From contig CAVOUE010000003.1 of NCBI GenBank assembly GCA_963699545.1, positions 768,001 through 832,000 of the forward strand: DNA of 64,000 nucleotides, in the 5' to 3' direction. Within the stretch, counting starts at the first letter, position 1. Every line of letters begins with the position of its first letter. Under the pieces are notes generated by a model that was not told where the DNA came from, made no database searches, and saw nothing but the letters and a program-made list of their open reading frames with translations. Positions 30,689 through 47,222 of this stretch are shown in pieces. Both the position numbers and the translations under genes were made by a program. Source of the DNA: Nitrospirota bacterium. Lineage in GTDB: Bacteria; Nitrospirota; Thermodesulfovibrionia; Thermodesulfovibrionales; UBA9159.

Positions 30689-33480
30689 ATGAATAGTGGC
30701 GCAGAAAAAAAGAGACTTGATGAGGCACGGGAGCAGGGGGTTTTGTGGAAGCAAGTGGGGGCCATACCTCAGTGAACGGCAGTGGGGTACGGTGCGCGAG
30801 GACTATAGCGAGGGGGGTGACGCATGGAATTTCTTCACCCACGATCATGCCCGCTCGCGCGCCTACCGCTGGGGCGAGGACGGCATCGCCGGCATTTCCG
30901 ATGACAAAGCAGCACCTCTGCTTTGCGCTGGCCCTCTGGAACGGGAAGGACCCGATCCTCAAGGAGCGGCTCTTCGGCCTCACCAACAGCGAGGGCAATC
31001 ACGGCGAGGACGTCAAGGAATATTATTTCTATCTCGACAGCACGCCGACCCACTCCTACATGAAGTATCTCTACAAGTACCCCCAGTCGGCCTTTCCTTA
31101 CGCCGACCTGGTTGAGACGAACCGCCGGCGCAATCGCGGAACGACATGGAGTATGAGCTCCTCGACACCGGCGTCTTCAATGACGACCGCTACTTCGACG
31201 TCTTTGTTGAGTATGCCAAGGCAGGTCCGGAAGACATCCTGATAAAGATCACGGCAGCCAACCGGGGACCGGAGGCGGCAGAACTGCACCTCCTGCCGAC
31301 GCTCTGGTTCCGGAACGACTGGGCGACGTGGATCGCCGAATCCAACAGGGCTGCCGAGAAACCAGACCTCAGGCAGATCACCCCCTCTCAATCCCCCCCT
31401 TACCAAGGGGGGGCAAAGGGGGGTATGAGCGCGGTCGCGGCAACGCATTCACTGCTGGGTGAATTCATTTTTTCCTGCGAAGGCGAGGTGCCGCTGCTCT
31501 TCACCGATAACACAACGAACAACGAGCGGCTCTTTCCCGGCCTGCCCAATGACAGCCCGTACGTAAAGGACGGGATCAACAACTGCGTGGTGCAGGGCAA
31601 TAAGGCTGCAGTGAATCCCGAAAAGCAGGGCACCAAGGTCGCGGCACACTACCAGGTCAAGGTCGGCGCCGGTCAGACCACGGTGGTCCGCCTGCGGCTG
31701 TCCAAACAGTTCTCCGAACCAAGAAGGGGCGGTAAGCCCTTTGGAAAGGATTTTGATGCAGTCTTTGCTGACAGGCTTCGCGAAGCCGATGAGTTTTACA
31801 AGTCTGTGACGCCGCCATCAGTGAGTGAAGACGCTGCAAACGTCATGCGCCAGGCCATCGCCGGCATGCTCTGGTCCAAGCAGTTCTTCTTCTTCGACGG
31901 TGACAACTGGCTGGACGAGCACCACTCCAACCCTCTCCATACCGGATATCGAAACGCCCGGAACTCGGAGTGGTTCCACATGCTGAACGAGGACGTCGTC
32001 TCGATGCCCGACAAGTGGGAGTACCCCTGGTACGCGGCCTGGGACCTGGCCTTCCACACGCTCCCGCTTTCGATCGTGGACCCCGACTTCGCCAAGGAGC
32101 AGATGAAACTGATGCTCAAAGGCGTCTACCTGCACCCCAGCGGCCAGATGCCGGCCTATGAGTGGAACTTCAGTGACGTGAACCCCCCGGTCCACGCCTG
32201 GGCGACCTTGTTCCTGCACCTGACCGAGCAGGCCCTGCGCGGCGAGACCGATCTCGATTTCCTCAGGGCGACGTTCAACAAGCTGCTGCTGAACTTCACC
32301 TGGTGGGTGAACCGCAAGGACCGGTTCGGCAAGAACGTCTTCGAAGGGGGCTTCCTCGGCCTGGACAACATCGGCATTTTCGACCGCAGCGCCCCTCTGC
32401 CCACCGGCGGCCACCTCGAACAGGCGGACGGCACGGCCTGGATGGCCTTCTTCAGCCAGAACATGCTGGAACTGGCGTTTCAGCTCTCCCTTCACGATCC
32501 CATTTACGAAGACATGATCGTGAAGTTCGCCGAGCACTTTTACTACATCGCCGCGGCAATGAACAAGCCCGGTCAGGAAGGCATGTGGGACGACGAGGAC
32601 GGCTTCTACTACGACATCCTGCGGCTCCCCGACGGCAGCGCCACGCGGCTCAAGGTGCGCTCGATGGTTGGGCTCCTGCCCCTGTGCGCCACGACCGTAA
32701 TCGAGGCTGCGTGGCGGGAGCGCATGCCGCGGGCGATGGCTCAGGTCACGAAGCGCCTGTACCGGATGCCCGAGCTTTTGGAGACTATGCACCCCACCGG
32801 TCCGGGACACTTTGGCGTGGCGGACCGGGGGATCCTGGCCCTGGTCAACCCGGAGCGGCTCCGCCGGATCCTTACGAAGATGCTCGACGAGAACGAGTTC
32901 CTGAGCCCCTACGGCATCCGCTCGATCTCCAAGTTCCACGAGCAGCACCCGTATGTCTTCCACGTGAATGGCCAGGAGTACCGGGTGGACTATTTGCCGG
33001 CCGAGTCGAACACCGGCATGTTCGGCGGCAATTCCAACTGGCGGGGACCTATCTGGATGCCGGTGAACGCCGTCATCATCCGGGCCCTCCTGCAGTACTA
33101 TCTTTACTATGGCGACAACTTCAAGATCGAATGCCCCACGGGTTCAGGGAAGATGATGAACCTCTTTGAGGTGTCCAAGGAGATCGCGGACCGGCTGAGC
33201 CGGATCTTTCTGCGGAATGAACAGGGCAAGCGTCCGGTGTATGGAGGCTCGGAGAAGTTCCAGAGCGATCCCCACTGGCGCGACCACATCCTATTCTACG
33301 AATACTTCCACGGCGACAACGGCGCAGGGCTTGGTGCAAGCCACCAGACAGGCTGGACCGGACTTGTGGCCAAGATGATCCAGCTTTACGGCCTCCTGGA
33401 TCCCAAGCAGTGCCCTGGAGGTGGGCAAAGAAGCTGCGTTCGTGAAGGGCGCCCCGGAAGCCGGGGCGGCAAAGAGATGA
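30689..33480 (+). CDS. MGH1-like / GH63 glycoside hydrolase, several frameshifts
   Basis: [70 protein letters not shown]. Confidence 0.9.
31378..31425. repeat. Short GC palindromic REP-like element inside the GH63 reading frame
   Basis: CCCCCTCTCAATCCCCCCCTTACCAAGGGGGGGCAAAGGGGGG, nested inverted repeats, encodes [16 protein letters not shown]. Confidence 0.6.
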
Positions 33481-34962
33481 GGACATGGCCTAAGCATCCG
33501 GTCATTTATGAGATCAACACATGGGTGTGGCTGGGTGAGCTGAGCCGGAAATACCGGAAGTCCGTGAACCTCGCCACGGTCCCGGAGCAGGAGTGGGATG
33601 CCATCGCTGCTCATGGATTTGATGCGGTCTGGTTCATGGGCGTCTGGGAGCGGAGCCCTGCTGGCATCGCCATTGCGAATCCAGAACAAAGGTCTTCTTG
33701 AAGACTTCCGACGGGCCCTTCCTGACTTTCGCCCGGAAGACAATGTTGGATCTCCCTATTGCGTGCGGCGCTACGTTGTCGATGAACACCTCGGCGGTCC
33801 GAAGGGGCTTGAAGCAGCGCGTAAAGCTCTCGCAAAGCGCGGCATTCTTCTCATCCTGGATTTTGTGCCGAACCATGTCGCTCCTGACCACCCGTGGGTC
33901 CTGAAGCATCCCGAATACTTCGTTCAGGGGAACGCCGACGATGCCAGGAGACGATCCGGCGTCCTTCGTTGAGGCGGGAGGGAAGGTGTTTGCCTGCGGC
34001 AGGGACCCTTACTTCCCGGCATGGCCAGATGTGCTCCAACTGAACGCCTTTGATGCGCGGTTTGCGTCAGGCGGTCATCGAGACAGCTCGGAAAGCATCG
34101 CCGATCAGTGCGACGGCATCCGCTGCGACATGGCCATGCTCATGCTGAACAGCATCTTCGAGCGTACCTGGGGAGCTCGGGCAGGCCAAAAGCCCGACAA
34201 CGACTACTGGACTACGGTCATTGCGGCCATCAAAGCGAAGTATCCCGAGTTCAGGTTCATCGCCGAGGCATACTGGGACCTCGAGTGGGAACTGCAACGG
34301 CAGGGTTTTGATCACTGCTACGACAAGAAACTCTATGACCGGATGGAACATAAGAATGCCGAGAGCGTGCGGATGCACCTCCTTGCAGATCTCTCTTACC
34401 AGCAAGGGATGGTCCGGTTCATTGAGAACCATGACGAGCCGAGGGCTGCAGCCACGTTTCCGGACGGTAAAGGGCGCGCTGCAGCCGTGGCGATCCTCAC
34501 TCTCCCTGGGGCCAGGCTGCTGCACGAGGGGCAGTTCGAGGGACTGAAGGTGAGGTTGCCAGTTTTTCTCGCGCCGTCGCCCCGCAGAGCCGGTCGATCA
34601 TGACCTCGTGGCCTTCTGCCACAATCTCCTGAAAGCGATTAATCATGATGTTTTCAGGAATGGCCAGTGGCTCCTCTGTGAGCGGAGCGGCTGGCCCGAC
34701 AACCAGGGCTATTTGAACATTCTCAGCTGGTGCTGGGTCCAAGGACGGGGAGCGTTACCTTATCATTATAAATTTCTCAGAGGCACCCTCACAGGCCCGC
34801 ATTCAGGTGCCGTGGGATGAACTGAGGGGAAAGACATGGCACCTCGTTGACGCCCTGTCGGGTGAAACCTATAAAAGGGACGGTAATGACCTGAGGGATC
34901 CAGGCCTGCACATTGATCTCGGAGCGTGGGATTGGCATTTCTTCTGCATACAACCTTCGTAA
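33477..34962 (+). CDS. Alpha-amylase family (GH13) glycoside hydrolase, several frameshifts
   Basis: YEINTWVW, LDFVPNH, DGIRCDMAM, FIAEAYW, RFIENHDE; ATGA overlap with GH63 stop. Confidence 0.88.
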
Positions 34963-35077: not shown

Positions 35078-35211
35078 GCACGGAAATTTAAATAAGTAAC
35101 ATAAGCAATATAATTGTTACTCAAAGCTTTAAATCAAATACTTATGTTCAACTCCAGATCAGAAACTCTGTGCAAAAATGGATTTGGGCAGTCCTACGCC
35201 CAGGCCCCCTG
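35078..35211 (+). repeat. Copy 1 of ~134-bp diverged direct repeat (copy 2 at 46873-47006) containing AGTAACA-N13-TGTTACT palindrome (35095-35121)
   Basis: Ungapped hand alignment at offset 11795: 67/97 identical over 35115-35211. Confidence 0.75.
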
Positions 35212-35235
35212 TATTGAGGAAGAAAAAGGGGTATT

Positions 35236-35427
35236 TCATGCATATTCGCCCACAGGGTTTCGACCATTAACCTCTTTTATCTTGCTGGAATCCTTAACGA
35301 AGAAAGGACATTTCTTGTATCCCCTGGTCCTGCAGTATTCGTGGAGTTGAAACACGCTGGGCACATAGATCCTGCCATCGATTTTACAGGTCGCCACTAT
35401 CCAATGATTTAAGTGGGGGCATTTCAT
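35236..35427 (-). CDS. Small Cys4 protein (C-x10-C-x17-C-x7-C), paralog 1
   Basis: MKCPHL...C...EYC.......CPFF; GGAGGAG RBS. Confidence 0.65.
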   Translation of the reverse strand: MKCPHLNHWIVATCKIDGRIYVPSVFQLHEYCRTRGYKKCPFFVKDSSKIKEVNGRNPVGEYA

Positions 35428-35600
35428 GATCTCCTCCAAGTGGGGATGGCTGGCAGCCGTCCGAGCTCCTGCAACGGAAGTCCCTTTATCGAGGGAACCT
35501 CGATCCTGATGCGGCCTGGAACATGGTGTACTATCCTGTACTGAATCACCTCTCATTCTCCTCCTTCTTTTTCTCATTACGGACATTAAACCACCCTTGT

Positions 35601-35638
35601 GTTACAGGGTTATGAATACAAAGTTAAATTCTGGTGAA
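35601..35638 (-). promoter_or_regulatory. Four 11-bp-periodic direct repeats (PhoB/OmpR-type box)
   Basis: Plus-strand pentamers GTTAC 35601, ATGAA 35612, GTTAA 35623, GTGAA 35634. Confidence 0.55.
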
Positions 35639-35786
35639 AACTCCTTCTGCTCGTAGGCAAGTAATGAAAAAATACATGGCGCCGTGTAGAGAAGCATGAT
35701 ACGCTTAAAGAGAGAAAAGGGTGTGTCTATTTTTCCTGGAGAGTATCTTTCCTTGAATTGCGCCTATTAGAGAAAGGAGGAACAGA

Positions 35787-36077
35787 GTGGGGCTTATTGA
35801 TGATGTGTTCAAAGGAAATGTGGTAACGGGCCTTGCGATCGGCATAGGTGCTGCTGTCCTTGGTCCTGCGGTGCTTCCCGTTATTGCAAGTGTGGCCAAA
35901 CCGGTGGCAAAGGCTGCAATAAAAGGGGGGATCATCCTTTACGAAAAGGGCAAAGAGGCCTTCGCAGAAATGGGTGAAGTGGTTGAGGATCTTGTAGCAG
36001 AAGCAAAATCAGAGGTGTCTGAGGCACAAAAAACTGCAGCTGCGGCATCTGCGGCCCAGGGTGAACCGGGTGCATGA
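35787..36077 (+). CDS. DUF5132-type small membrane protein with GxxxG motif (FezA-like architecture)
   Basis: GLAIGIGAAVL.P...VAKPVAKAAIKGG..LYEKGKE..AE.GE..EDLVAEAKSE; AGGAGG RBS, GTG start. Confidence 0.8.
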   Translation: MGLIDDVFKGNVVTGLAIGIGAAVLGPAVLPVIASVAKPVAKAAIKGGIILYEKGKEAFAEMGEVVEDLVAEAKSEVSEAQKTAAAASAAQGEPGA

Positions 36078-36556
36078 TCCAGCCCGAGGCTCATATAAGT
36101 CATCATACCACTGGAAGAATGCGGATCAAGATACCCTCAAAAAAGGGGGACATCGCATATCTGGAGGCTTTGAAGGAACATTTTTCAGGGCTGGAAGGCA
36201 TCAGAGCCCTGGAGGTAAATCCGACGACGGGAAGTGTGCTCATTGTGCACAACCTCGACAGGCAGACCATTGAGCAGTATGCCACGGCAAAGAATCTCTT
36301 CAGCTTGACAGCAGCGAATCCCTCTCCTGCCGGCTTGCACCCGAAGGTGTCCGAGACTTTTCAGGATCTGAACGATCAAATGAAGGCATTCACGTCCGGG
36401 GAGATCAATGTTGGAGGAGCGGCATTCCTTGCCCTTCTTGGTGCGGGGATATACCAGATAGGCAGGGGGAATCTCACTGCCATTCCTTGGTATACCGCAT
36501 TCTGGTATGCTCTCAATATCTTTCTGAAATCCAAGAACGATTCAAAAATGGAATAA
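36074..36556 (+). CDS. HMA2-domain protein with C-terminal membrane segment (FezC-like architecture)
   Basis: HHTTGRMRIK, VNPTTGSVLI, no CxxC; C-terminal LALLGAGIYQ...IPWYTAFWYA; overlaps upstream stop. Confidence 0.78.
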   Translation: MIQPEAHISHHTTGRMRIKIPSKKGDIAYLEALKEHFSGLEGIRALEVNPTTGSVLIVHNLDRQTIEQYATAKNLFSLTAANPSPAGLHPKVSETFQDLNDQMKAFTSGEINVGGAAFLALLGAGIYQIGRGNLTAIPWYTAFWYALNIFLKSKNDSKME

Positions 36557-36570
36557 GCCAGTTGATATAT

Positions 36571-36608
36571 TTAACATAATTGTCAACCTAACTTCACTAA
36601 TCTGTAAC
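36571..36608 (+). promoter_or_regulatory. Four 11-bp-periodic direct repeats upstream of repeat protein-ATPase-metK operon
   Basis: TTAAC 36571, GTCAA 36582, TTCAC 36593, GTAAC 36604. Confidence 0.55.
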
Positions 36609-36746
36609 AGAGAGGCTGTAACATTATGATTGGTTTCAGGAGCATACCTCAGCATCTCTTATCACTATTCTTACGTGAAACAGGTATTGGTAAGGCATGT
36701 GAGAATTTTACAAACAAAATGCATTTAACCGGAAAGGAGGCATACT

Positions 36747-37418
36747 ATGCCAAGGGAAAATGTTGTAAAAAGTGCACCAGCAGGTAAAGAGGAAGTAACC
36801 AGCATGGGCAAAGCGGGTACATCAGTAAAAGAGGGTGTAGTGAGCAGTCTGAAGGGTATCAATGAGATCGAGGCTGAGATCGTCAGTCTGGTGAGGAACA
36901 CCGTTTCCAATACCCTGAGGGCCACCGGTAGCGTGGCCCATGAGGCGGTCACCATCACAAAGGATGTGGTAAAAGGGACGATCCAGGCTACAGAAGAAGT
37001 CGGCACAGGCCTTATCCTCAGCACAAAGAGTGTCGCCAAGGGAATCGTCATGGGTGTGAGTGATGTAGGCGGAGACGTCGTCACTGTTGCCAGCCAGACA
37101 GTAAAGGGTGCGGTGAAGGGCGCGGCAGAAGTGGGCGCGGATGTTGCCATGGTGGCAAGAAGGACGGTTGACGGAGTTATCGAGGCCACAAAAGAAATTG
37201 GCGGAAATGTGGAAGAAGTGGCAAAAGTGGCTGTGGGAGGAGCGATCGAAGCTGCAGGCACTATCGGAAATACTGCCGTGAAGGCCGTAAAAGATATGCT
37301 CGTCGGTGTTGTAGAGGGCGTAAAGGAAGTGGCAGGCTCAGCGCTGCCAAAGCCGCACCAGGTGCCTCCGCCCGCTCATAAGGAGACCGAGAGCCATGCA
37401 AAGGGAAGAAAGAGGTAG
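36747..37418 (+). CDS. Val/Gly/Ala-rich protein built of 22-residue amphipathic repeats
   Basis: VKGTIQATEEVG/AKGIVMGVSDVG/VKGAVKGAAEVG/VDGVIEATKEIG/VGGAIEAAGTIG at 22-aa spacing; AGGAGG RBS. Confidence 0.8.
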   Translation: MPRENVVKSAPAGKEEVTSMGKAGTSVKEGVVSSLKGINEIEAEIVSLVRNTVSNTLRATGSVAHEAVTITKDVVKGTIQATEEVGTGLILSTKSVAKGIVMGVSDVGGDVVTVASQTVKGAVKGAAEVGADVAMVARRTVDGVIEATKEIGGNVEEVAKVAVGGAIEAAGTIGNTAVKAVKDMLVGVVEGVKEVAGSALPKPHQVPPPAHKETESHAKGRKR

Positions 37419-37427
37419 TAAAGGGGC

Positions 37428-40400
37428 GTGGTCCAGCCGGTACATACGGCGGTAAAAGGGAGAACAAGATTTAGAGTAGATGGGCTTTATCGCTCTGAAG
37501 AACTCAAAAGAGAGATCGAATCAAGACTCTCTTCCTATAGGGAGATTCAGGGGTTCTCGGTAAATATCCTTACCGGTAAAGTCCTTGTATTTTATAACTC
37601 AGGTAACTCTCCCGAGTCGATTGCATCGCTCATTGCAGGCGTTGTAGGCGAGGCAGCGAAGGCGGGGAAACCGTCCCCACCGGTCCAGCGGACTGCAGTC
37701 CATGATCAGGGCGAGTGGCTTCCCGCAAGCACTATGCGGGCAGAATACCCTTACCCTGAAGCGGAGAGAAGCCAGCGTATACAGAGCAGAAGGACATTAA
37801 GAAGAAGCGTTGTCCTTTCCGAAGTGCAGACCGAGGAAGCCTGGCACCTCATGGACGCAACGGACGTGCTCGGAACTTTCGGCACGTCAAGAAATTCCGG
37901 ACTGTCCACCGATCTCGTCAGTGTAAATCTCAGGAAATTCGGACCCAATGTTCTTCCTGAAGCGGTCCCCCGTTCCGGGCTGAGTATGTTCTTCAATCAG
38001 TTCAAGTCCGTCCCTGTGGCACTTCTCGGTGTCGCAGCGGGTATTTCTGTTCTTACCGGCGGCCTTGCAGATGCCGTGGTGATCATGGGCGTGGTCTTCA
38101 TAAACGCAGCCATAGGGTACACAACCGAGAGCCAGACCGAAAAAACTATCCACGCCCTGAAGAACCTCGTCAGGCCCTCTGCCGTTGCGGTGCGTGACGG
38201 CAGTGTGAAAGAGATTGGGGCGGGAGAGATAGTGCCGGGAGACCTCCTGCTGCTTAGACCCGGCAGCTATGTTGCGGCGGATGCAAGACTCATCGAAACG
38301 AATCACCTGAGCATTGATGAGTCTGCCCTTACCGGTGAGAGCATGCCGGTGAACAAAGCTGTATCTCCTATCACGCAAAAGGATATCCCCCTCGCTGACA
38401 GGACAAACATGGTCTATATGGGCACCCTCGTTACCGGCGGACAGGGGCTTGCAGTCGTTGTGGCAACGGGGAGGTTCACCGAGATGGGCAAGATCCAGAC
38501 CCTTGTGGGTGAGGCAAGGCCTCCTGAAACACCCATGGAGCGCCAGTTGGACAGAATGGGCAGCCAGCTGGTATTTATCTGCGGAATAGTCTGCGGCATG
38601 GTCTTTGTCACCGGAATGCTCCGGGGATACGGTCTTTTGCAGATGCTTAAGGTTTCCATATCCCTTGCGGTGGCTGCGGTCCCGGAAGGTCTTCCCACGG
38701 TGGCAACCACTACCCTCGCCCTCGGCATCAGAAATATGCGGAAGCATAATGTCCTCATACGACATCTTAACGCGGTCGAGACCCTCGGCTCGGTCCAGAC
38801 CATATGCCTCGACAAGACAGGGACGATCACCTTTAACAGGATGTCCGTGGTCGCAGCATATGCCGGCATGAGAGGCTTCACCGTGTCTCATGGACAGTTT
38901 TTCCAATCCGGTGAACCTCTGAGCGTATATTTCCATGATGAACTCTTAAGACTCATTCACCTATCGGTCCTCTGTAATGAAAGTGAAGTGATCATGAGAG
39001 GACGGCAAATATGTCGTCAACGGCTCTCCGACCGAGAATGCCCTGATACACGTTGCATTAAGTTCAGGGGTTGACGTTCAGATGCTCAGGGAGAAGTTTC
39101 CTGTCCTGAAGATCTATCACCGTTCAGAGAAGCGAAATTACATGTATACGCTCCATGAAACCCGGAATAGTTCTGCACTCATTGCAGTAAAGGGAAGCCC
39201 CAATGAGGTGTTGTCGCTATGCATCTGGCAAATGAAGGATGGTCAGAAGATTCCCCTCACCGATGAAGACCGCCTCGCCCTGGAGACCGAAAATGAGCGC
39301 ATGGCGGGCGAGGCCCTCCGTGTTCTTGGGGTAGCGTATTCGTTTGCCGATGAGCCAGTCACTTCCGATCAAAGAGGACATAGATTCTGCGGACAATCTC
39401 ATTTGGGTCGGGTTTGTGGGCATGGCAGATCCGGTCAGGGATGGAGTGAGGGGATTAATAGGCGAATTTCACAAGGCCGGGATAGATACGGTCATGATTA
39501 CCGGTGACCAAAGCCCGACCGCTTATGCCATAGGAAAAGAATTGAACCTCAGTAATGGCGAACAGCTTGAGATCCTTGATTCCAGCCACCTGATCGATAT
39601 CGACCCTGAGGTGATGAAGGCGCTCTGCAAAAGGGTGCATGTCTTTGCCCGTGTCAGCCCTGCCCACAAACTCCGGATAGTCCAGGTGCTCCAGAGCGCG
39701 GGGAAGGTCGTTGCCATGACGGGCGACGGCATCAACGACGGGCCGGCCCTTAAAGCTGCGGACATCGGTATCGCCATGGGACATACAGGCACCGATGTCG
39801 CCCGTGAGGTGGCAGACGTCGTCATCGAGGACGATAACCTCGATACAATGGTCATTGCCATAAGTCAGGGAAGGACTATCTATAACAACATAAGGAAGTC
39901 CGTCCATTTTCTCTTGTCCACAAATCTCAGCGAGATCATGGTCATGTTCACTGCCATTGCAGGAGGTCTCGGCCAGCCTCTGAGTGCGATACAGTTGCTC
40001 TGGATCAACCTCATGTCCGATATAGCGCCGGGTCTGGCGCTTGCCCTCGAACCGCCGGAGCCTGATGTTCTGAGCCAGCCGCCGCGCGACCCTGACGAGC
40101 CCATTGTGAGGAAATCAGATTTCAAGAGAATCACCTTTGAATCAGCAATGATATCTGCCGGGACCTTAGGGGCTTACGGGTATGGCATTGCGAGATACGG
40201 CATGGGCCAAAAGGCAGGTAGTCTTGCGTTCCTGAGCCTTACCACAGGACAGCTCCTCCATGCGATCAGCTGCCGTTCAGAGAGGCACAGCATATTCGGC
40301 AGGGAGAAGTTGCCGCCGAACAAATATCTCAATATGGCCCTGGGGGGTTCCTTTGCCATCCAGCTCTTGGCTATGGTGATACCGGGGTTGAGAAATCTCC

Positions 40401-40513
40401 TGGGCATCGCTCCAATCAGTGTCCTTGATGGTGTTGTAATCGGAGGCAGCGCCGTTCTCCCCTTATTGGTGAATGAAGGAACGAAGAAACTCCCGAAAGA
40501 GGTAACCGCATGA
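37428..40513 (+). CDS. P2 (Ca2+/Mn2+-type) P-type ATPase with N-terminal HMA2 domain; two frameshifts (~39000, ~39360)
   Basis: HTAVKGRTRFR...NILTGKVLV; DESALTGES, AVPEGLP, DKTGT, MITGD, TGDGINDGPAL, STNLSE, QLLWINLMSD. Confidence 0.9.
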
Positions 40514-41709
40514 AAAAAGACTTCATCTTTACATCAGAATCCGTAACAGAAGGCCATCCTGACAAGCTCTGCGACCAGATAAGCGACGCCATAGTTGACC
40601 ATTTCCTTCAGCAGGACCCCTATTCAAGGGTCATTGCCGAGTGCGCAGTATCGACTGCGATCATGTTCATCGCCGCGAGGTTCGAATCTAATGCGAGCGT
40701 GGATTTCCCGAATATAGCGAGGCAGGTCGTAAACCAGATCGGTTATGACCAGGATGCCTTTAATGCAAAGACGTGCAGCATCGTGACAAGTCTCAAGGAA
40801 TTGCCCCATGATGAGCATTGCTGCTTTGATGAAAGAAAACTGTCAGATGCGGAGATCGATGCAATTCCCGCGCGCAACCAGGTTACCGTCTTCGGTTTTG
40901 CCTGCAACCAGACATCTGCCCTTATCCCCCTTCCCATCTGGCTGGCCCACAGACTGGCAAGGAAACTCACCTCCGTCAGACTCCAGAAGATACTCTCCTA
41001 TCTTGCGCCTGATGGGAAAACGCAGGTGGGGATCGAGTACAGGAACGGAAAGCCTCACAGGATCCACAGCATCACGGTTATCGCCAGTCAGGACAGGCCT
41101 TCAGCGGCAGGAGGCCCTGATATGAAGAGGCTCGAAGACGATATCAGGCAGGTTGTTATAGATTCTGTATTCCCTGATGAGGATATAAAACCTGACAGAA
41201 ACACAAAGATATTTATCAATCCTGATGGCCCGTTTATCATCGGAGGTCCCTCAGTCCATTCCGGGCTGACGGGAAGGAAAAATGCAATTGATACGTACGG
41301 AGAATACTCCCGACAGAGCGGAGCTGCCCTCAGCGGTAAAGACCCTATGCGTATAGACAGGATAGGCGCCTATGCGGCCCGTTACGCAGCAAAGAATGTC
41401 GTTGCTGCAGGACTCGCGGATGAGTGCGAAATACAGCTCAGCTACTCCATCGGTCTTGCGAGGCCTGTGAGCATTCAGGTAGAGACCTTCGGCACGGGAA
41501 AGATCCCTGATGAGAAAATCTCAGCGCTCGTTGAGAGACATTTTGATTTCCGTCTGGCAGGGATCATACGACAGTTTAATCTGAGATACCTCCCATCGAT
41601 TTTGAAGGGTGGCTTTTACAGAAAACTTGCGGCTTACGGACATGTGGGGAGAATGGATATAGGACTTCCCTGGGAGCTGATAGACAAAATGAGCGAGATG
41701 AGAGGGTAA
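40510..41709 (+). CDS. metK: S-adenosylmethionine synthetase homolog with divergent methionine site
   Basis: FTSESVTEGHPDKLCDQISD, DGKTQV, GLTGRK, SGKDP, AAYGH; ATGA overlap with ATPase stop. Confidence 0.88.
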   Translation: MKKDFIFTSESVTEGHPDKLCDQISDAIVDHFLQQDPYSRVIAECAVSTAIMFIAARFESNASVDFPNIARQVVNQIGYDQDAFNAKTCSIVTSLKELPHDEHCCFDERKLSDAEIDAIPARNQVTVFGFACNQTSALIPLPIWLAHRLARKLTSVRLQKILSYLAPDGKTQVGIEYRNGKPHRIHSITVIASQDRPSAAGGPDMKRLEDDIRQVVIDSVFPDEDIKPDRNTKIFINPDGPFIIGGPSVHSGLTGRKNAIDTYGEYSRQSGAALSGKDPMRIDRIGAYAARYAAKNVVAAGLADECEIQLSYSIGLARPVSIQVETFGTGKIPDEKISALVERHFDFRLAGIIRQFNLRYLPSILKGGFYRKLAAYGHVGRMDIGLPWELIDKMSEMRG

Positions 41710-41789
41710 GGGGAGCATGGAACGTACGCGGTGTGATAGCAACATCGAGGCATTAAAGGCGGACTTCAGGAAATGAGAGGAGGATCAGT

Positions 41790-41987
41790 ATGATATCAAC
41801 GCAAGATCTGCTCGTCGTCCTGGTAATCGTCCTTGTTTTGTTCGGTAAGACGAGGCTGCGCGAACTCGCTAAAGGGTTGAAAGAAGGGGTCAAGAATTAC
41901 AAGAAGAGCCTGTCCGAGCCGGACGAAATAGACGTTACGCCCAAAAAAAATAAGAATAACAAAGAAGGCCGGAGTTGTAGAAAATGA
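41790..41987 (+). CDS. tatA: Twin-arginine translocase TatA/E subunit
   Basis: TM helix + LFG hinge + amphipathic RLRELAKGLKEGVKNYKK. Confidence 0.8.
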   Translation: MISTQDLLVVLVIVLVLFGKTRLRELAKGLKEGVKNYKKSLSEPDEIDVTPKKNKNNKEGRSCRK

Positions 41988-42126
41988 TAGGCAACCAACA
42001 CATAGAACAGCAGCCGTAAGACACAAAAAGCAAGCCGCGGCCTTGAGCCAGTGTAGCCTATAAGTTGTCTCTCACGCTTTATTCTTCCCTCTGACGTTAC
42101 CGATCCGCTCCTTTCTTTCTTCATTA

Positions 42127-42175
42127 CTCACCTCTGATTCATCAACATGTAACACGCCTTTCATCATCGCTTAAC
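42127..42175 (+). promoter_or_regulatory. Five 11-bp-periodic direct repeats (Pho-box-like) upstream of the phosphoesterase
   Basis: CTCAC 42127, TTCAT 42138, GTAAC 42149, TTCAT 42160, TTAAC 42171. Confidence 0.65.
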
Positions 42176-42449
42176 CATGCTCAGGTATTCTCAAACAGAA
42201 CACAATGACGCATTCTCCACGCAACGGAACTAAAAGCTAGTTTTCCTGAAGGAGAGAGGCAGTCAAATGAGAACGATTCTGCAGGGTCGATTGTCTGAAC
42301 CGTGGGAAACAAAAGGAGGTGAAGAGGAAGAATTGTAAGGAAAGCAGCGTAACACGCTGACAAGAAGATAATGCATCACGCAGGACAAAACACTTCGTAA
42401 TGGAAAGCCGCATTAAGCGGCCGCACTAAATCTCTCAGGAGGATAAAGT

Positions 42450-44257
42450 ATGTCAACGAAAAGGTATACCCAGAGGTTTCTCTCTCTCCTCGTGATCCTG
42501 TCACTGGCGATGTTTATCGCAGTCACATCGGCATTCGCGGAACCCTGGAAGTTCGGCGTAATGTCCGACACTCAGTGGAAGACCTCCCCAGATGCGAAGA
42601 ATCCAAACACTGTGGCGGTCGGACCGATCATTCACCTCAACCAGGAATTCAAGAACCACGGTGTCAAGTTCGTTATCCAGACCGGGGACTTGACGGAAAA
42701 CGGCAACAACCTTGAGATGGATACAACTGCAACCTTCAGGCAGGCCCTTTATAACGCCGGTATCGGCTTCTACCCGCTCCGTGGCAACCACGATACATTT
42801 GCTGCGGTCGCCACGAGTTCCAGGCGTCTTCCCGCAGACCCAGACCGGGTAAACAACCAGACTCCTACCGACGCGCTGGTCACCACCCCCTATTACGGCA
42901 ACCCCATCGACCCGGCGAACCCATATAACCTGTTCAACACGAACACCACCTTCACTGTCGGGTCCAATTTCAGCAGCCCGACGGACATTGACCCTAACTA
43001 TGCCGGGTCTGACTTACTCGTTCGATTACGACAATGCCCGTTTCGTGATGCTGGACGGTTTTACGATACCGAACATTGCCTGTAATCTGATTGAGAACCA
43101 GCAGCCCTGGATATCGAGCACGCTTTCGACCAGGCCGGCAGAGACTCCCATGCCTTTGTATTTTCCCACAAAGGCCTGATCACTGAAAACCATACGGATA
43201 TCCTCTTTACGCTCCGGGCAAGTGCAACGGCAGCAGCACCAGCAGCAATCCTTCCGTCAAACCTGCTGAGCAGAATGCGTTTATGAGCAGCCTGTTCAAC
43301 AACGGCGTCCGGTATCTCATGAACGGCCACGACCACATGCACAACCGGGCTATTGTCGACGAGCCCGGACGCCCTCTCGACAGGTACAGAACATCACCAC
43401 CTCCTCCAACAGCTACAAGTTCTATATTCCGCTTGATCCCGTCGAACGACGAAACGTTCAAAGCTGACCTACGGCATCACGCAACGCTTTCCCCGGGAGA
43501 CCGGAGATCGCTCAGGAGCTCTTCACCGTCGGCTACTACATCGTCACGGTGGACGGACCGCGGGTGACCGTGGACCACTACTCTTCGCCGAACGGTTGCA
43601 ATGGCGACTGCGACCAGACCAACGATCGTAATTCCTACACCTTCACCAAGCGCGAGACCTTCGGCTACAGCCTCAACGGCCAGGAATTCCTTGGTTGGCA
43701 GGGCGAGTCCTACACGGCTGTTCAGGACAGCTTCGAGGGCACGACTGCGAAGATCCTTGGCTGGCGTCAACGGCAGCACGGCAACGGTCTATGACGGCCG
43801 CGCAATGACCAAGGCCGTCAATACCGGGTGGACCTCGGGTCAGAAGCTGATGACATGGACTACAGTGCCAGCCACAGGTGGCCGTGGTTCTCTAAGAAGC
43901 GCTACCAGAGGAAGGATGACGAAATGCCTGCCAGCGATATCCTCACCCTCTGGGGCATGGCCGACCTCGGGAGCGACCAGACCGACGTGTACACGCTCTC
44001 GATGAGCTATGACCACCACAAATTGCTCCCCATTCAACTCGGGAAAGGGCCTGTTGGGCCTTGCAACGAGGGATGAGAACGGCGACTGGGTCAACGCCGT
44101 GGATATGAACTTCGGCGGCACCAAGAAATTCGTCCTCGGCCCCTGGAAGCCCGGCTACGAGCTCGGCACATACGGTATCGACCTGAAAACACACACCGCC
44201 TGGGCGGTCATTAACTACAATGGCGATTTCGCCGTCGCCGGGTTCAGACATTTTTGA
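42450..44257 (+). CDS. Secreted calcineurin-like metallophosphoesterase, many frameshifts
   Basis: Signal peptide; SDTQ, TGDL, RGNHD, FSHK, NGHDH motifs across shifted frames. Confidence 0.82.
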
Positions 44258-44327
44258 TGAAGATAGGTGACAGGAAGAAGTAGGAAGCTGACCCTGAAAG
44301 ATAAGGGTGCGATTCATCCGCAGGAAG

Positions 44328-44361
44328 GGAGCCCGTGAAAGTTCTCACGGGCTCCGTTTTT
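44328..44361 (+). terminator. Rho-independent terminator
   Basis: GGAGCCCGTGA-aagttc-TCACGGGCTCC followed by T-tract. Confidence 0.8.
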
Positions 44362-44391
44362 ATGGCCTGTTCAGGTGGATTTCACCATCCC

Positions 44392-44782
44392 TCATTCATT
44401 CTTTGCAGCTGATGTGGTTCTCCCTGCAGGCTTCCTCGCAGGCTTCTTCCTGAGAGGTGCCTTTCTTTGTCTCTTTTTCGGCTTTCCCTCAAGTTTCATA
44501 ATTTCATCCTGCAGTTTTCCGATTCTGGCTTTAATGGCTTTGACCTTGCTGTCGGACATCGGATTCTTCACCTTTGAACTCAAATCATACACTCTTCCAC
44601 CAAGCTCCGCTATCTCCTTCTGCACTTTTGTCTGCAAGTCAAAAAGCTTATAACGTCTTTTCCCTTCCTCAGTGAGTTCTTCTGCTTTTTTCTGCACAAC
44701 CGCGGCACCTTCTTTGACAAAGAGTGATGCTTTCCTCGACACCTGTTTGCAAATCCTTCTTGATCTTTTCCCAGAAGTTCAT
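44392..44782 (-). CDS. Coiled-coil protein with Lys/Arg/Pro/Ala-rich tail (frameshift near 44720)
   Basis: GGAGG RBS, MNFWEKIKKDLQTG...KKAEELTEEGKRRY...ELGGRVY...KPKKRQRKAPLRKKPARKP. Confidence 0.65.
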
Positions 44783-44805
44783 AGTCCTTCCTCCTCTCAT
44801 TGACT

Positions 44806-45144
44806 CTATTCTTCTAACCCTCCCCCTCCCAATGCCGTTACAACCTTTTCAGCCACTTCAAGGGCCTTTTCAGTGGCTTTCTCTATATACTGATCGCACG
44901 TTTCTGCCTTTGCAAGACAAAAATAACCATACTTCTCCAGAATACCGATGACCTGTTCACAGTTGATCTTCTTTTCATCAAAGTGTAGTACTGCACTTCC
45001 GGTGACCGTATGGGTCTCCACAGCGGTTATTCCCTCAATTCCTTTTATAAACGTTTGAAACTGCTCAGCCTTTTCCGGGTTTTCCCGAATCACCGGGGTT
45101 TCGATCCTTATCCTGCCGGGCACATAATGAATATAATATTCCAT
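44806..45144 (-). CDS. HMA2-domain protein
   Basis: MEYYIHYVPGRIRI, HTVTGSAVL.FD, GYF. Confidence 0.8.
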   Translation of the reverse strand: MEYYIHYVPGRIRIETPVIRENPEKAEQFQTFIKGIEGITAVETHTVTGSAVLHFDEKKINCEQVIGILEKYGYFCLAKAETCDQYIEKATEKALEVAEKVVTALGGGGLEE

Positions 45145-45491
45145 TTCCCGTCCTCCCGTCTCGGACAGCATAGAACAGCTGTCAACTTCTTCTATTTTAG
45201 CAGCCACACCCTTTATTCTCAATATACTTTATGTCCTAAGGCATTATGAGAATCCATTTTCAACCCGCAGTCTGCAACGTTATGGCTTTGGATAGTATAG
45301 CAACAAGACATATCTTGTCGTCCTTTATGGAGGAGTATTCAGCTAGGGCTTGTTTGATTTGCGTTTGGAAATCAGACCACCAGAGACTTTAGTGATGTGA
45401 ATTATGTTTTATTGTCATTCAGGAAATAAATAAGGAAGGAATATGAGCAGGCAGTCTGGGCGAGCCCTTGCAGGGAACGGGATGAAAAAAT

Positions 45492-45864
45492 CTATATCAG
45501 GAGAGTGATAAGAGACAATGCAGATCCTTCCAGTGCCGTTTCTAGAAAGGTACCGAAGATGGCTCTCCCCACCACATCTCCTGCTTTGGAAGCGGCTCTG
45601 TGGATGTACTGGTCGTTTGTCAAGGCCTTTGATGTGTCAAAATAGCCTTTTCTCTGAAGGAGACTCACGATGTCATCGTGATGTATGGTCTTGGGGTTAT
45701 AATTCACAAGAATGCTTCCGGTAGTCAGGTTAATATCTACCGTTGCTATCCCCTGCATGGTGCTCAAGCTCTTCCTGATATCATCAGCGATATCCTGATT
45801 CCTCTCTGACCAAAGGGCTTTTCACCCTCAGCCTTCCGGGAACGTTATGGATGTAATAGCTCAT
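45492..45864 (-). CDS. HMA2-domain protein (frameshift near 45805)
   Basis: MSYYIHNVPGRLRVKSPL then INLTTGSILVNY...KGYFD...TNDQYI; paralog of 44806-45144. Confidence 0.78.
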
Positions 45865-46159
45865 CTTTTTCCTCCTTTATCCTGAATTTCCTGTACTCTC
45901 TGCATTCCGGATATCCTGAGCATCTGAACCGTATAACCTCTCCCTCAATCTTGTAGACATTCATGCTCTTTCCGCAGGCGGGACAGACCGGTTTGCCCTT
46001 TACCGATAACTTCTTGGCATTCTTGGTAAACTGCATGCCGCACATCATGCAAAGGAATCTCTCTTTTCCGGTCCAGGCCTTTCCGTATTTATATACTGCA
46101 TCCGAAGCGCAATCCGGGCATTTGGCATTGAGTTTCTCGATTACGGCTTGTGCTTCCAT
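45845..46159 (-). CDS. Double zinc-ribbon protein (InsA-like ribbon + topoisomerase-type C4 ribbon)
   Basis: CPDC..YKYGK...RFLCMMC and CPACGKSM...CSGYPEC. Confidence 0.75.
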   Translation of the reverse strand: MEAQAVIEKLNAKCPDCASDAVYKYGKAWTGKERFLCMMCGMQFTKNAKKLSVKGKPVCPACGKSMNVYKIEGEVIRFRCSGYPECREYRKFRIKEEKDELLHP

Positions 46160-46181
46160 ATTTATATTTAATCAAATGATT

Positions 46182-46219
46182 TTTACAGCATTATTAAGGG
46201 ATTGTTACATTTTCGTTAC
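46182..46219 (-). promoter_or_regulatory. Four 11-bp-periodic direct repeats upstream of zinc-ribbon/HMA2 genes
   Basis: Plus-strand TTTAC 46182, ATTAA 46193, GTTAC 46204, GTTAC 46215. Confidence 0.5.
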
Positions 46220-46409
46220 ATTTCAGTGTTTCAGCAGCGGTCTCCCGCAATAGGGAGATATAGATTGCGCATACTTCATAGTGTCTCCCCATGCAGAGCC
46301 GAATGTCAGCCCCTTGTATAGACCTGACCAACTTGTTCAGCACGTTGCATTTTGCCCCATTCGAGCTTCCCTCAAGGTACTGACAAAGCATTCCTCTTGA
46401 CTGGTACAT
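46194..46409 (-). CDS. Small Cys4 protein (C-x11-C-x17-C-x7-C), paralog 2
   Basis: LCQYL...C...LC....YEVCAIY; AGGAGG RBS. Confidence 0.65.
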   Translation of the reverse strand: MYQSRGMLCQYLEGSSNGAKCNVLNKLVRSIQGADIRLCMGRHYEVCAIYISLLRETAAETLKCNENVTIP

Positions 46410-46453
46410 TACTTCCTCCTTTTCTTTCTCTTTACAACTATACAATCTTATCT

Positions 46454-46491
46454 GTTACAGCATTGTTACAAGAATATTAAATTTCTGAGAA
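46454..46491 (-). promoter_or_regulatory. 11-bp-periodic direct repeats upstream of Cys4 paralog 2
   Basis: Plus-strand GTTAC 46454, GTTAC 46465, ATTAA 46476, GAGAA 46487. Confidence 0.5.
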
Positions 46492-46569
46492 AAGACATAA
46501 AAGGGGAAATCAGTAATCATGCTGACTGCCTGAGAAAGTCTTTTGATCCATCTTAAACCCTCTGTTACG

Positions 46570-46737
46570 CTACGCAACTCTTCTGCATGCCATACCCGTT
46601 GAGATGAAATAGAGAGAAATGAAAACCTTGCATTTCTCCCACTCTCCCATCAAACAGCATTTTTTGTCAGCACACGGTATCCTTTCCGGCTCGATACCTG
46701 CCACTTCACAAATCCCCTTCTTGAAACTTGGACACAT
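46570..46737 (-). CDS. Small Cys4 protein (C-x7-C-x17-C-x7-C), paralog 3
   Basis: MCPSF....C...CC....WEKCKVF; GGGGGGTG RBS. Confidence 0.6.
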   Translation of the reverse strand: MCPSFKKGICEVAGIEPERIPCADKKCCLMGEWEKCKVFISLYFISTGMACRRVA

Positions 46738-46821
46738 TTCGATCACCCCCCCTATGTCATTACCCCAACCCGCTTCACAGGATAAATCTTGGCTGTCTGC
46801 AGTCAAGGTTATCATCGAGAT

Positions 46822-46848
46822 GTTACAGCATGATGAAGCAGAGGTTAA
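46822..46848 (-). promoter_or_regulatory. Three 11-bp-periodic direct repeats upstream of Cys4 paralog 3
   Basis: Plus-strand GTTAC 46822, ATGAA 46833, GTTAA 46844 (same series as 35601). Confidence 0.55.
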
Positions 46849-46872
46849 TTTTCTTAGGCAAGGAATTTTAAG

Positions 46873-47006
46873 GCACGTAAATAAATTGAAGTTACATGCT
46901 GTTGAGGAATGTTACTTAAGACTATAATTCAATATGTTAAGCATAAATCCAAAATAGAAACCCTTTGCAAGAATGGCTCTGAGCGGTCCTGGATCCAGCC
47001 CTCCTG
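46873..47006 (+). repeat. Copy 2 of ~134-bp diverged direct repeat with AGTTACA-N13-TGTTACT (46890-46916)
   Basis: Ungapped match to 35078-35211. Confidence 0.75.
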
Positions 47007-47028
47007 CCAATCCCGCCACTCTCTCAGG

Positions 47029-47222
47029 CTATCTCTCTTCGTCCGAATTGCTGCTCTTCTTGAACACCTCAGGATCTATGTTCCCCGACCCGGGCCCTCC
47101 GCACTCCGGAATATAACAGGTAACGTCAACGTACTCACACTTTTCTTTGCATGAAGGACAAAGGTCCGGCGGAACATCCGCTTTCATCGTGTAGCCGCAT
47201 TTATTACATTTCCAGAAGTCAT
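47029..47222 (-). CDS. Small rubredoxin-like protein (1-bp frameshift right after ATG; absent from ORF track)
   Basis: GGAGG RBS; FWKCNKCGYTMKADVPPDLCPSCKEKCEYVDVTCYIPECGGPG. Confidence 0.75.

Follow-up and report, generated by a model that had tools for sequence, protein, structure and literature searches.

A conserved gene cluster with a P2A-type ATPase, CoBaHMA proteins and a MetK-family protein in a Nitrospirota genome and its relatives

What do a Ca2+-ATPase-like pump, two kinds of small membrane protein, a repeat protein and a relative of methionine adenosyltransferase do together in a bacterium? The question was raised by a gene cluster at positions 35,787 to 47,222 of a 64,000-nucleotide stretch of contig CAVOUE010000003.1 (the whole stretch is called the window here). 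The source genome, G000, is a metagenome-assembled genome (MAG) of a Nitrospirota bacterium with 13 contigs and 87% completeness. An initial annotation had described the cluster as ferrosome-like and as a candidate storage compartment for metal and phosphate. Pfam and NCBIfam searches bore out its gene inventory: the DUF5132 protein, four HMA_2 domains without CxxC, the repeat protein, the ATPase, the MetK-like protein, the tatA-like gene and the phosphoesterase were all present. We found that five of these genes form a predicted operon that recurs in the same order in many genomes. Its function is a separate matter, for which we tentatively propose the loading of Ca into an intracellular body.

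Gene order and conservation of the predicted operon

All five genes are on the plus strand. The first encodes a DUF5132 protein (35787..36077, PF17195), with an N-terminal hydrophobic segment followed by a long acidic helix. The second encodes a CoBaHMA (HMA_2) protein with a C-terminal helical hairpin (36074..36556, PF19991), and the third a 223-residue repeat protein ("amph") rich in Val, Gly, Ala and Thr (36747..37418). They are followed by the genes of a P2A-type ATPase with an N-terminal CoBaHMA domain (37428..40513, read in three frames in the assembly) and of a MetK-family protein with a remodelled methionine pocket, renamed here as MetK2 (40510..41709, TIGR01034). The DUF5132 and CoBaHMA-hairpin genes overlap by 4 nucleotides (36074-36077), as do those of the ATPase and MetK2 (40510-40513), and 9 nucleotides separate the repeat-protein gene from the ATPase gene. 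A promoter and terminator scan of 35200-42500 returned chance-level counts (6 vs 6.4; 8 vs 7.0). Rfam and tRNA scans of the window found a tRNA-Leu alone, far from the cluster.

The genomes of 40 relatives were compared, and loci were fetched from 11. An ATPase ortholog was present in 11 of the 40 relatives, with 64-96% identity over the C-terminal 389 residues and open reading frames (ORFs) mostly of 1014-1074 residues. A MetK2-type gene was found in the very same 11. The order DUF5132, CoBaHMA-hairpin, repeat protein, ATPase and MetK2 was complete in 6 of the 11 loci. It was cut by the contig edge at DUF5132 in L019, the repeat protein alone was missing in L023, and the other relatives' loci were short contigs.

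An alignment scan of species-representative genomes with the repeat protein found 175 loci, of which the best 80 were 71-88% identical. Neighbourhood counts given below as n/80 refer to these best 80 of 175 loci; many of the contigs were cut, so the counts are lower bounds. Where there was room on both sides of the repeat-protein gene (63 loci), all four partners were present in order in 52. The rest comprised 6 loci without any partner, which were solo repeat-protein copies and often second copies in one genome, and 5 partial ones. Counted as ORF families, the repeat protein was in 80 loci, the CoBaHMA-hairpin protein in 68, the ATPase in 68, the DUF5132 protein in 67 and MetK2 in 57. Three further families were frequent: a 123-residue CoBaHMA protein (51), a zinc-ribbon protein (38) and a small protein after MetK2 with a weak DUF3562 match (28). 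Conservation of the gene combination across genomes had been named as a check on the initial annotation, and the 52 of 63 assessable loci confirmed it.

Most carriers were labelled as Nitrospirota (Thermodesulfovibrionales, Dissulfurispiraceae, Candidatus Sulfobium and Candidatus Manganitrophus). Others carried the labels Thermodesulfobacteriota, "delta proteobacterium", Desulfobulbaceae, Candidatus Deferrimicrobium, Binatia or Pseudomonadota; all phylum labels are the MAG labels as they stand in the records. The repeat protein was encoded in 51 of 401 sampled Nitrospirota genomes, with a patchy distribution (17/35 in f6, 18/64 in f25 and 0/75 in f29).

G009, a relative of another genus that is represented here by the loci L025 and L056, was compared with G000 at silent sites (third positions within identical codons). 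MetK2 and the ATPase had identities of 0.78-0.84, against 0.42-0.56 for six further orthologs. The cluster DNA (window 36700-41709 vs L025) was 91% identical, whereas other shared genes were 66-76% identical. Because silent-site identity was high in the cluster genes and low in the other orthologs, these values point to a recent horizontal transfer of the cluster between the G000 and G009 lineages. Taken at the level of sequence, the comparisons describe a conserved and horizontally mobile operon, with which soluble CoBaHMA, zinc-ribbon and small Cys-rich proteins travel along.

A search of the full-text literature returned no description of this operon, and DUF5132 or PF19991 was mentioned in a Microcystis preprint alone. 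In a search of sequencing runs, no RNA run was among the matches listed and shares were at most 0.17, which is uninformative on expression or habitat.

Proteins of the operon

The ATPase contains the Pfam domains HMA_2, Cation_ATPase_N, E1-E2_ATPase, Cation_ATPase, Hydrolase and Cation_ATPase_C, and its phosphorylation motif is ICLDKTGT. The intact ortholog scored 635 bits with the PMR1-type model TIGR01522, 562.1 bits with the SERCA-type model TIGR01116 and 249 bits with the IB heavy-metal model, each below the cut-off of its model (798.3, 703.4 and 346, respectively). The best-matching solved structures were all P2: SPCA1 (8iww), LMCA1 (6zhf) and SERCA (1iwo), with E values from 2.3e-153 to 3.5e-127. 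The match to human SPCA1 had E 2.3e-153, and that to Listeria LMCA1 had E 1.3e-147. The ordering of these scores placed the pump outside P1B, as the initial annotation had held. The domains Cation_ATPase_N and Cation_ATPase_C were present, and PEGLP, STNLSE, WINLMSD and the M8 Gln bore out its reading of the motifs as P2-type.

The pump resembles SPCA1, LMCA1 and SERCA over its full length, with DKTGT, PEGLP in M4 and N..SD in M6. In the alignment to SPCA1, M4 reads PEGLP, M5 stNlsE (stSiaA in SPCA1), M6 wiNlmSD and M8 has a Gln (Asp in SPCA1). We take the SERCA equivalents of these positions to be E309, N768/E771, N796/T799 (Ser in the pump)/D800 and E908 (Gln in the pump). SPCA1 is without the N..E of M5, whereas the pump has it, so site I looks kept as in SERCA. 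Both Ca sites thus look kept, with SERCA-type ligands and a Gln at the M8 position. A further difference from the three known pumps is the extra N-terminal CoBaHMA domain of about 70 residues, which is followed by a linker. Judged by these features, the pump belongs to a P2A-like subgroup of its own, with the CoBaHMA domain as an N-terminal addition, and we infer that it transports Ca2+ or a similar divalent cation.

The ATPase gene and its class were as first described, but the gene is not one ORF in the assembly. It is read in three frames (37428-39074, 39082-39507 and 39344-40513). Compared with the intact 1027-residue ortholog of G009 (L025:380-3463), it has two extra bases, near 38994 and 39354. 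Apart from these, the DNA of the two is 91.6% identical, and each frame piece has 90-95% amino-acid identity to the G009 ortholog. The phosphoesterase ORF downstream is likewise in several pieces, and the 123-residue CoBaHMA gene on the minus strand contains one frameshift.

Such breaks are widespread in G000. We took 27 G009 ORFs of at least 250 residues, kept 17 with at least 60% identity to a G000 counterpart and dropped 10 that were below 60% or absent. In G000, 7 of the 17 clear orthologs were broken up, each into two to four frames, and these lay on several contigs. The split genes include housekeeping-size ones on other contigs, for example at C4:111508-114784, C4:119578-121931 and C3:465078-466357. 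All public contigs over the two ATPase sites were without one base there (X1 and X3 at 38994/38996, X2 at 39354). The frameshifts in the ATPase, the 123-residue CoBaHMA gene and the phosphoesterase are probably assembly errors; we read them as such because 7 of 17 orthologs are split, because public contigs are without the extra bases and because the source is a 13-contig MAG.

It is quite unlikely that the cluster in G000 is instead a decaying remnant, in which the ATPase, one CoBaHMA gene and the phosphoesterase would be real pseudogenes. Two frameshifts in the ATPase, one in the 123-residue CoBaHMA gene and several in the phosphoesterase would be expected of a remnant, and the ATPase insertions lie outside long homopolymers. 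The public contigs that restore the frame are 90-97% alike and thus come from relatives and not from the source strain, which leaves room for a real pseudogene in that strain. Decay would, however, fit poorly with the genome-wide splitting of orthologs, with the DNA and amino-acid identity to the intact ATPase and with one base fewer in every public contig over both sites. Since the assembly is full of single-base frameshifts, any pseudogene call in the window calls for caution. Within the ATPase gene, contig depth jumped 10- to 50-fold at 39626-39837 in all four runs. We do not regard this jump as a feature of the gene, because the universally conserved P-type ATPase motif at this position draws contigs of many other organisms.

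The repeat protein matched no family in Pfam, glycine-zipper families included, or in NCBIfam, and its nearest Atlas clusters were unnamed. Its core consists of 20% Val, 14% Gly, 13% Ala and 9% Thr and is arranged in six tandem 22-residue repeats. Autocorrelation was strongest at lag 22 (z = 11.2), followed by lag 44 (z = 9.0), lag 66 (z = 6.9) and lag 11 (z = 4.5), so the amphipathic-repeat protein of the initial annotation does exist (36747-37418) and is periodic. A period of 11 or 22 residues is characteristic of amphipathic helices on lipid surfaces, such as those of apolipoproteins and perilipins. AlphaFold 2, run with 30 sequences, modeled seven helices with a pLDDT (the predicted value of the local distance difference test) of 83.7 and a predicted template modelling score (pTM) of 0.71. 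The PDB folds found by Foldseek were de novo designed helical repeats alone, with no natural structure among them and none at E <= 0.001. We regard the repeat protein as a candidate scaffold or coat, and a solenoid scaffold and a surface-coating helix are both open as readings.

A profile of the repeat protein matched 372 of 1.84 billion cluster representatives at E <= 1e-10. In homologs from other organisms, the 22-residue repeat domain was fused to the MucR/Ros zinc-finger regulator domain (PF05443), to CsbD-like (PF05532) or to DUF2934 (PF11154) domains (P0001, P0003, P0005-P0007 and P0012 in all). Some genomes contain two to five copies of the repeat-protein gene, and some of these stand solo or form inverted pairs beside the operon. 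Extra copies are found in L056 of G009 (7218-7769 and 14855-15221) and also in L062 and L114.

The small GxxxG membrane protein noticed at 35787 belongs to DUF5132 (E 7.1e-15, 55.2 bits with a cut-off of 25) and has an isoelectric point (pI) of 4.68. Its G15xxxG19 motif is conserved in the hydrophobic segment, G15 in at least 90% of sequences and G19 and G21 invariantly. It is the sole DUF5132 protein of the G000 genome. A complex of it with the CoBaHMA-hairpin protein was predicted with a score of 0.08 (mark 0.32), which counts neither for nor against binding.

Three of the four HMA_2 domains scored above the PF19991 gathering cut-off of 30 bits: the CoBaHMA-hairpin protein (57.8 bits and E 1.6e-15, over positions 9-153 of the 154-position profile), the ATPase N-terminus (32.2 bits) and the soluble CoBaHMA protein HMA2_b at 44806..45222 on the minus strand (59.2 bits, E 5.8e-16). 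The fourth, the 123-residue type at 45492..45864 on the minus strand, starts at 45864(-) (MSYYIHNVPGRLRVK) as first described, but its frame shifts near 45805. The resulting 91-residue ORF scored 21.7 bits, and 28.6 bits were obtained when the gene was read from DNA, both below the cut-off. Intact orthologs of this protein were 63-92% identical in five relatives' loci and 39% identical in L023. A search of a plasmid collection with the CoBaHMA-hairpin protein gave one weak match, from Microvirga.

The H..PG/GR.R motif reported for these domains was also found. Across 24 CoBaHMA sequences, the H...GR.R signature had H10 in at least 90% and R15 and R17 in all, and GR.R is carried by the four CoBaHMA domains of the cluster. 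By inspection of the sequences, no CxxC is present at the metal loop of the window's HMA_2 domains. The AlphaFold 2 model of the CoBaHMA-hairpin protein had a pLDDT of 82.9 overall and 90-97 in the domain. It places strands 5-12 and 15-19 before helix 27-38, with a beta-alpha-beta-beta-alpha core followed by three helices. Its best fold matches were HMA domains, although weak (E 9e-3, TMt up to 0.67).

The abstract of the CoBaHMA survey of Gaschignard from 2024 reportedly places the domain in membrane proteins of transport and lipid metabolism, and a CoBaHMA-ATPase fusion may already be listed in that survey. As passages of a paper on calcyanin describe it, HMA_2 corresponds to CoBaHMA, a member of the HMA superfamily without CxxC that has an extra strand beta0 with a conserved His and conserved basic residues (PMC8890360). 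Calcyanin, which marks the intracellular amorphous Ca-carbonate (iACC) of cyanobacteria, is where CoBaHMA was first seen (PMC8890360), and in a passage that cites Gaschignard (2024) the domain is proposed to bind anionic lipids. By sequence and model, the HMA_2 domains of the window fit the CoBaHMA definition.

MetK2 scored 381.2 bits with TIGR01034 (cut-off 309.4) and contains the three MetK Pfam domains. It resembles MetK and methionine adenosyltransferase (MAT) of E. coli (1fug) and human (MAT2A) in its three domains, its family score and its triphosphate-site and catalytic motifs GHPDK, PDGKTQV, GLTGRK and SGKD, which are kept. It differs from them in the methionine pocket and by an insertion of 7 residues. 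An alignment was made of 65 homologs from the fetched loci and the window's own copy. Every one of these sequences, the window's copy included, has.H(S/A)GLTGRK in place of GD.GLTGRK; housekeeping GE is changed to AR in at least 90% of sequences, and GAGDQG to.(R/K)NQV in most members. Gln-Ser is changed to Leu-Pro (Pro in the window's copy), in a loop that is variable in the family.

Passages of a study of human MAT2A report that the methionine backbone is held by Glu70, Gln113 and Asp258, and that Asp258 mutants of MAT lose SAM (S-adenosylmethionine) synthesis and keep phosphatase activity (PMC6850014). We mapped the MAT2A numbering onto GE, EQS and GD.GLTGRK by motif identity. The three residues then correspond to Arg, Leu and His in MetK2. 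By this mapping, MetK2 has lost all three methionine ligands, and its pocket for the positively charged amino group is basic now. MetK2 probably keeps the ATP/triphosphate chemistry, and we infer that it takes another, perhaps anionic, substrate.

Cluster-bearing relatives encode both MetK2 (65-93% identity) and a housekeeping MetK (46-49%). Relatives without the cluster have the housekeeping MetK alone, so MetK2 is restricted to cluster-bearing genomes. The gene had been called a metK paralog. The MetK-like gene is real and the paralogy is seen in relatives, but no second MetK was found beside MetK2 in the 87%-complete MAG G000.

These features also bear on an unlikely alternative in which the system is centred on MetK2. 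In that case, MetK2 would make a novel adenosylated metabolite or cleave triphosphate in a metabolic or lipid-remodelling response to phosphate limitation, and the pump and membrane proteins would serve its pathway. The replacement of three methionine ligands by Arg, Leu and His, the kept triphosphate-site motifs, the restriction to cluster-bearing genomes that have a housekeeping MetK besides, and the phosphatase activity of the MAT mutants are all in line with it. Against it, no methyltransferase, radical-SAM or lipid-headgroup enzyme was constant among the neighbour families of the 80 loci, and the partners that MetK2 constantly has are an ion pump and proteins of membrane or structural type.

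Neighbouring genes and the link to phosphate

Between the plus-strand operon and a minus-strand accessory group lie a TatA-like gene (41790..41987, plus strand; PF02416, E 4.7e-10) and the gene of a calcineurin-like phosphoesterase with a signal-peptide-like N-terminus (42450..44257, plus strand, several frames). PF00149 matched only the first piece of the latter (E 3.7e-6; Metallophos fragment 42450-43085). Both genes had been counted as parts of the cluster, and this did not hold. Neither tatA nor the phosphoesterase (first piece as query) had a match in the 11 relatives' loci, and both were rejected as cluster members (0/11). The last piece of the phosphoesterase matches the edge of a G009 contig (L056).

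Accessory genes flank the operon on both sides. Upstream and divergent from it is o116 (35236..35586, minus strand), a frequent accessory gene for a small Cys-rich basic protein with no family match in Pfam or NCBIfam. Its orthologs lie upstream of DUF5132 in 6 of the 11 relatives' loci and in many of the 80 surveyed loci; its ORF family was counted in 23/80, and a second copy is on G000 contig C11. The downstream group on the minus strand begins with cc116 (44392..44742), an occasional accessory gene. It encodes a Lys-rich, probably coiled-coil protein of pI 10.4 that matched no family above threshold, with orthologs in L020 and L025 and an ORF family in 11/80 loci. After HMA2_b and the 123-residue CoBaHMA gene, a double zinc-ribbon protein is encoded at 45845..46159 (Zn_ribbon_InsA E 5.3e-9, Zn_ribbon_IS1595 E 1.8e-8, NF050000). 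The end of its gene overlaps the start of the 123-residue CoBaHMA gene, and its family is the one found in 38/80 loci. Two small Cys-rich proteins, o83 (46194-46445) and o81 (46570-46815), matched no Pfam family; these recurrent downstream accessory genes (46194..46815, minus strand) have orthologs in L017, L018, L020 and L021 and on contig C11.

Contig C11 of G000 contains a second accessory locus (C11:62255-73269). It comprises phoU-pstBACS, an o116 homolog, a small CoBaHMA protein, a Lys-rich 180-residue protein, a ParA/MinD-like ATPase, a 123-residue CoBaHMA protein, a zinc-ribbon protein, o83, o81 and a response regulator.

Phosphate genes also recurred beside the operon. PstS-like genes were in 19/80 loci and PhoU-like genes in 17/80, and PstS, PstC/A, PstB and PhoU ranged over 17-19 loci. 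The linkage occurred in at least three arrangements, and also with low-identity copies in differently labelled MAGs (L051, L076 and L114). Other recurrent neighbours were an OlsB-like GNAT protein, a PlsC-like acyltransferase and a low-molecular-weight phosphatase (LMWPc), each in 9/80 loci, and alpha/beta hydrolase and ParA-like families were also among the Pfam-annotated ones. A ParA-like ATPase was considered as a positioning factor and rejected as not core (3/80 loci, plus L025 and C11). Iron genes (Feo, Fur/DtxR, DUF2202 and DUF4405) were absent from the recurrent neighbour families that Pfam annotated; several small families had no Pfam match. The pstSCAB-phoU linkage suggests phosphate as the counter-ion that is stored or handled, or else a system governed by phosphate status. 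The alternative counter-ion would be carbonate, by analogy with the iACC of cyanobacteria.

Two further groups of genes in the window lie outside the cluster. A PilZ-domain protein (50661-51329) adjoins two TPM-domain, phosphatase-like proteins (51304-51954 and 51954-52823) on the minus strand. Upstream, at 31146-33701, an 851-residue glycoside hydrolase with GH63/MGH1-like domains is apparently unrelated to the cluster. GC content is lowest in the window at 44-48 kb (0.467-0.469).

Known systems and possible functions

Going by the passages of the preprint that describes it, the closest published relative of the operon is the ccyA neighbourhood of the iACC-forming Microcystis aeruginosa PCC 7806. 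There, two DUF5132 genes flank ccyA, together with a CoBaHMA gene with a DUF454-like C-terminal helical hairpin, another CoBaHMA gene and a gene for a Ca2+/H+ exchanger (CAX). Co-expression with ccyA is reported for the exchanger, for one of the DUF5132 genes and for the CoBaHMA-hairpin gene (10.1101/2024.07.07.602159). Both neighbourhoods thus combine DUF5132 (a transmembrane segment with a long helix), a CoBaHMA-hairpin protein and further CoBaHMA beside a Ca2+ transporter. That transporter is CAX in Microcystis, as the same passages describe, and a P2A ATPase in the present cluster. No calcyanin with a (GlyZip)3 domain was evident in the cluster by inspection rather than by profile comparison, and the repeat unit has 22 residues here versus about 50 for the GlyZip of calcyanin, as described in passages of PMC8890360. 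The present cluster adds the 22-residue repeat protein and MetK2 to the ccyA-type parts. Its hosts are anaerobic Nitrospirota and similar MAGs, whereas those of ccyA are cyanobacteria, and no carbonate-related genes were recurrent among the annotated neighbour families. The passages available link the ccyA system to a Ca mineral inclusion inside the cell.

The ferrosome clusters of Desulfovibrio magneticus, Shewanella putrefaciens and Rhodopseudomonas palustris are the second system to compare. In the relevant passages of their description, they encode the GxxxG protein FezA, FezC with an HMA domain and two transmembrane segments, Arg-rich motifs and a P-type pump of class P1B-6; they stand in an iron context and are sufficient for organelle formation (10.1101/2020.01.10.902569). 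The present cluster follows a like logic, with a small hydrophobic GxxxG protein, soluble and membrane HMA or Arg-rich proteins, a P-type ATPase and a broad, patchy distribution. FezB, however, is P1B-6 and the pump here is P2A, and no iron-homeostasis context was seen here. Ferrosome function is shown by genetics in those passages; that of the present cluster is read from genes. The ferrosome-like label therefore stood as an analogy of parts only, with the P1B-6 pump absent and no iron-homeostasis genes recurrent nearby. We judged that this is not a ferrosome cluster because the pump is not P1B (635 vs 249 bits; top structures P2). That the cluster makes a true ferrosome, an iron-phosphate organelle, with FezB replaced by another pump is very improbable. 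The parts lists are analogous: a hydrophobic GxxxG protein, a P-type ATPase and HMA-type proteins whose N-terminal motif is rich in Arg. Against this, the P2A pump has oxygen-ligand sites of Ca type, Feo, Fur, DUF4405 and DUF2202 were not among the recurrent neighbours examined, and the small proteins are FezA- and FezC-like by analogy of parts.

For the operon itself, the descriptive findings are firm, and its function is proposed by analogy: with somewhat less than even confidence, we favour a role in loading Ca into an intracellular body. The pump would move Ca2+, or a similar divalent cation, from the cytoplasm into a body that is membrane-bounded or coated. The DUF5132 and CoBaHMA-hairpin proteins may mark or shape its membrane, and the repeat protein may scaffold or coat it. 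Through the basic CoBaHMA domains, the pump could be coupled to a ligand of anionic nature, such as lipid, phosphate or polyphosphate. MetK2 would keep its ATP/triphosphate chemistry with a substrate other than methionine. We favour this proposal because two of its small membrane families are tied to a cyanobacterial inclusion system, because the parts list mirrors that of ferrosomes, because a near-invariant structural repeat protein is present and because phosphate genes are linked. The recurrent pstSCAB-phoU adjacency gives indirect support to a Ca/phosphate body.

Several points weigh against it. The compartment is proposed by analogy alone, and no inclusion, compartment or expression has been observed in any carrier. 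The pump lies below the equivalog cut-offs of both Ca-ATPase models, so its ion is not fixed by score. Bacterial P2A pumps are usually exporters of the plasma membrane. Most of the pst linkage is found in Nitrospirota that are related to one another, and this kinship inflates its count. Neither polyphosphate kinase nor carbonic anhydrase nor a bicarbonate transporter was among the annotated recurrent neighbour families, several small ORF families being without a Pfam match.

The main rival proposal, which we consider possible though doubtful, is that the operon is a cation-homeostasis module of the cell envelope and makes no compartment. The P2A pump would export Ca2+ (or Mn2+) over the cytoplasmic membrane, and the CoBaHMA and small membrane proteins would regulate it by anionic-lipid or phosphate status, for example during phospholipid replacement under phosphate limitation. 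The exporter habit of the P2A class agrees with this, as does the fact that, among solved structures from bacteria, the Listeria exporter LMCA1 is the nearest (E 1.3e-147). So do neighbours of lipid and phosphate metabolism: pstSCAB-phoU (17-19/80), the OlsB-like GNAT and PlsC-like proteins (9/80 each) and the low-molecular-weight phosphatase (9/80). The anionic-lipid binding proposed for CoBaHMA, in the passage citing Gaschignard (2024), would fit as well. An envelope module would nevertheless leave unexplained why the repeat protein is 71-88% identical over differently labelled phyla and why each cluster has three to four CoBaHMA proteins and a dedicated MetK-derived enzyme. In addition, the passages on Microcystis connect the same pair, DUF5132 and CoBaHMA-hairpin, with a system that forms inclusions.

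Beyond Ca loading as such, a broader proposal is that the operon is a kit for an undescribed organelle, a store of Ca (phosphate or carbonate) in anaerobic Nitrospirota, Desulfobacterota-type and other bacteria of soil, peat and groundwater. Its parts would be a DUF5132/CoBaHMA membrane, a coat of 22-residue repeats, a P2A pump under CoBaHMA regulation and an enzyme derived from MetK that acts on a new substrate, all spread horizontally as one set. Taken jointly, these parts make a picture that we regard as unproven and rather doubtful. If it is true, the parts would have common ancestry with the cyanobacterial iACC machinery, and perhaps with ferrosomes, and this would point to a CoBaHMA/DUF5132 toolkit for bacterial mineral compartments.

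Genes for intracellular Ca minerals are partly known. In the passages available, ccyA is described for cyanobacteria and nothing convincing for Achromatium or magnetotactic calcifiers; no genes of this kind are reported in those on calcifying magnetotactic bacteria. Here, two iACC-linked families, DUF5132 and the CoBaHMA-hairpin proteins, are locked into a conserved, transferable predicted operon together with a Ca-type pump. Whatever the cluster does, the 22-residue repeat protein represents a new and unusually conserved family, and MetK2, judged by its motifs, is a clear example of a core enzyme whose substrate pocket has been refitted. If the compartment is real, the operon would offer a set of genes for Ca/P storage in bacteria that is portable and open to testing, and would extend such storage to anoxic soils, peat and groundwater.

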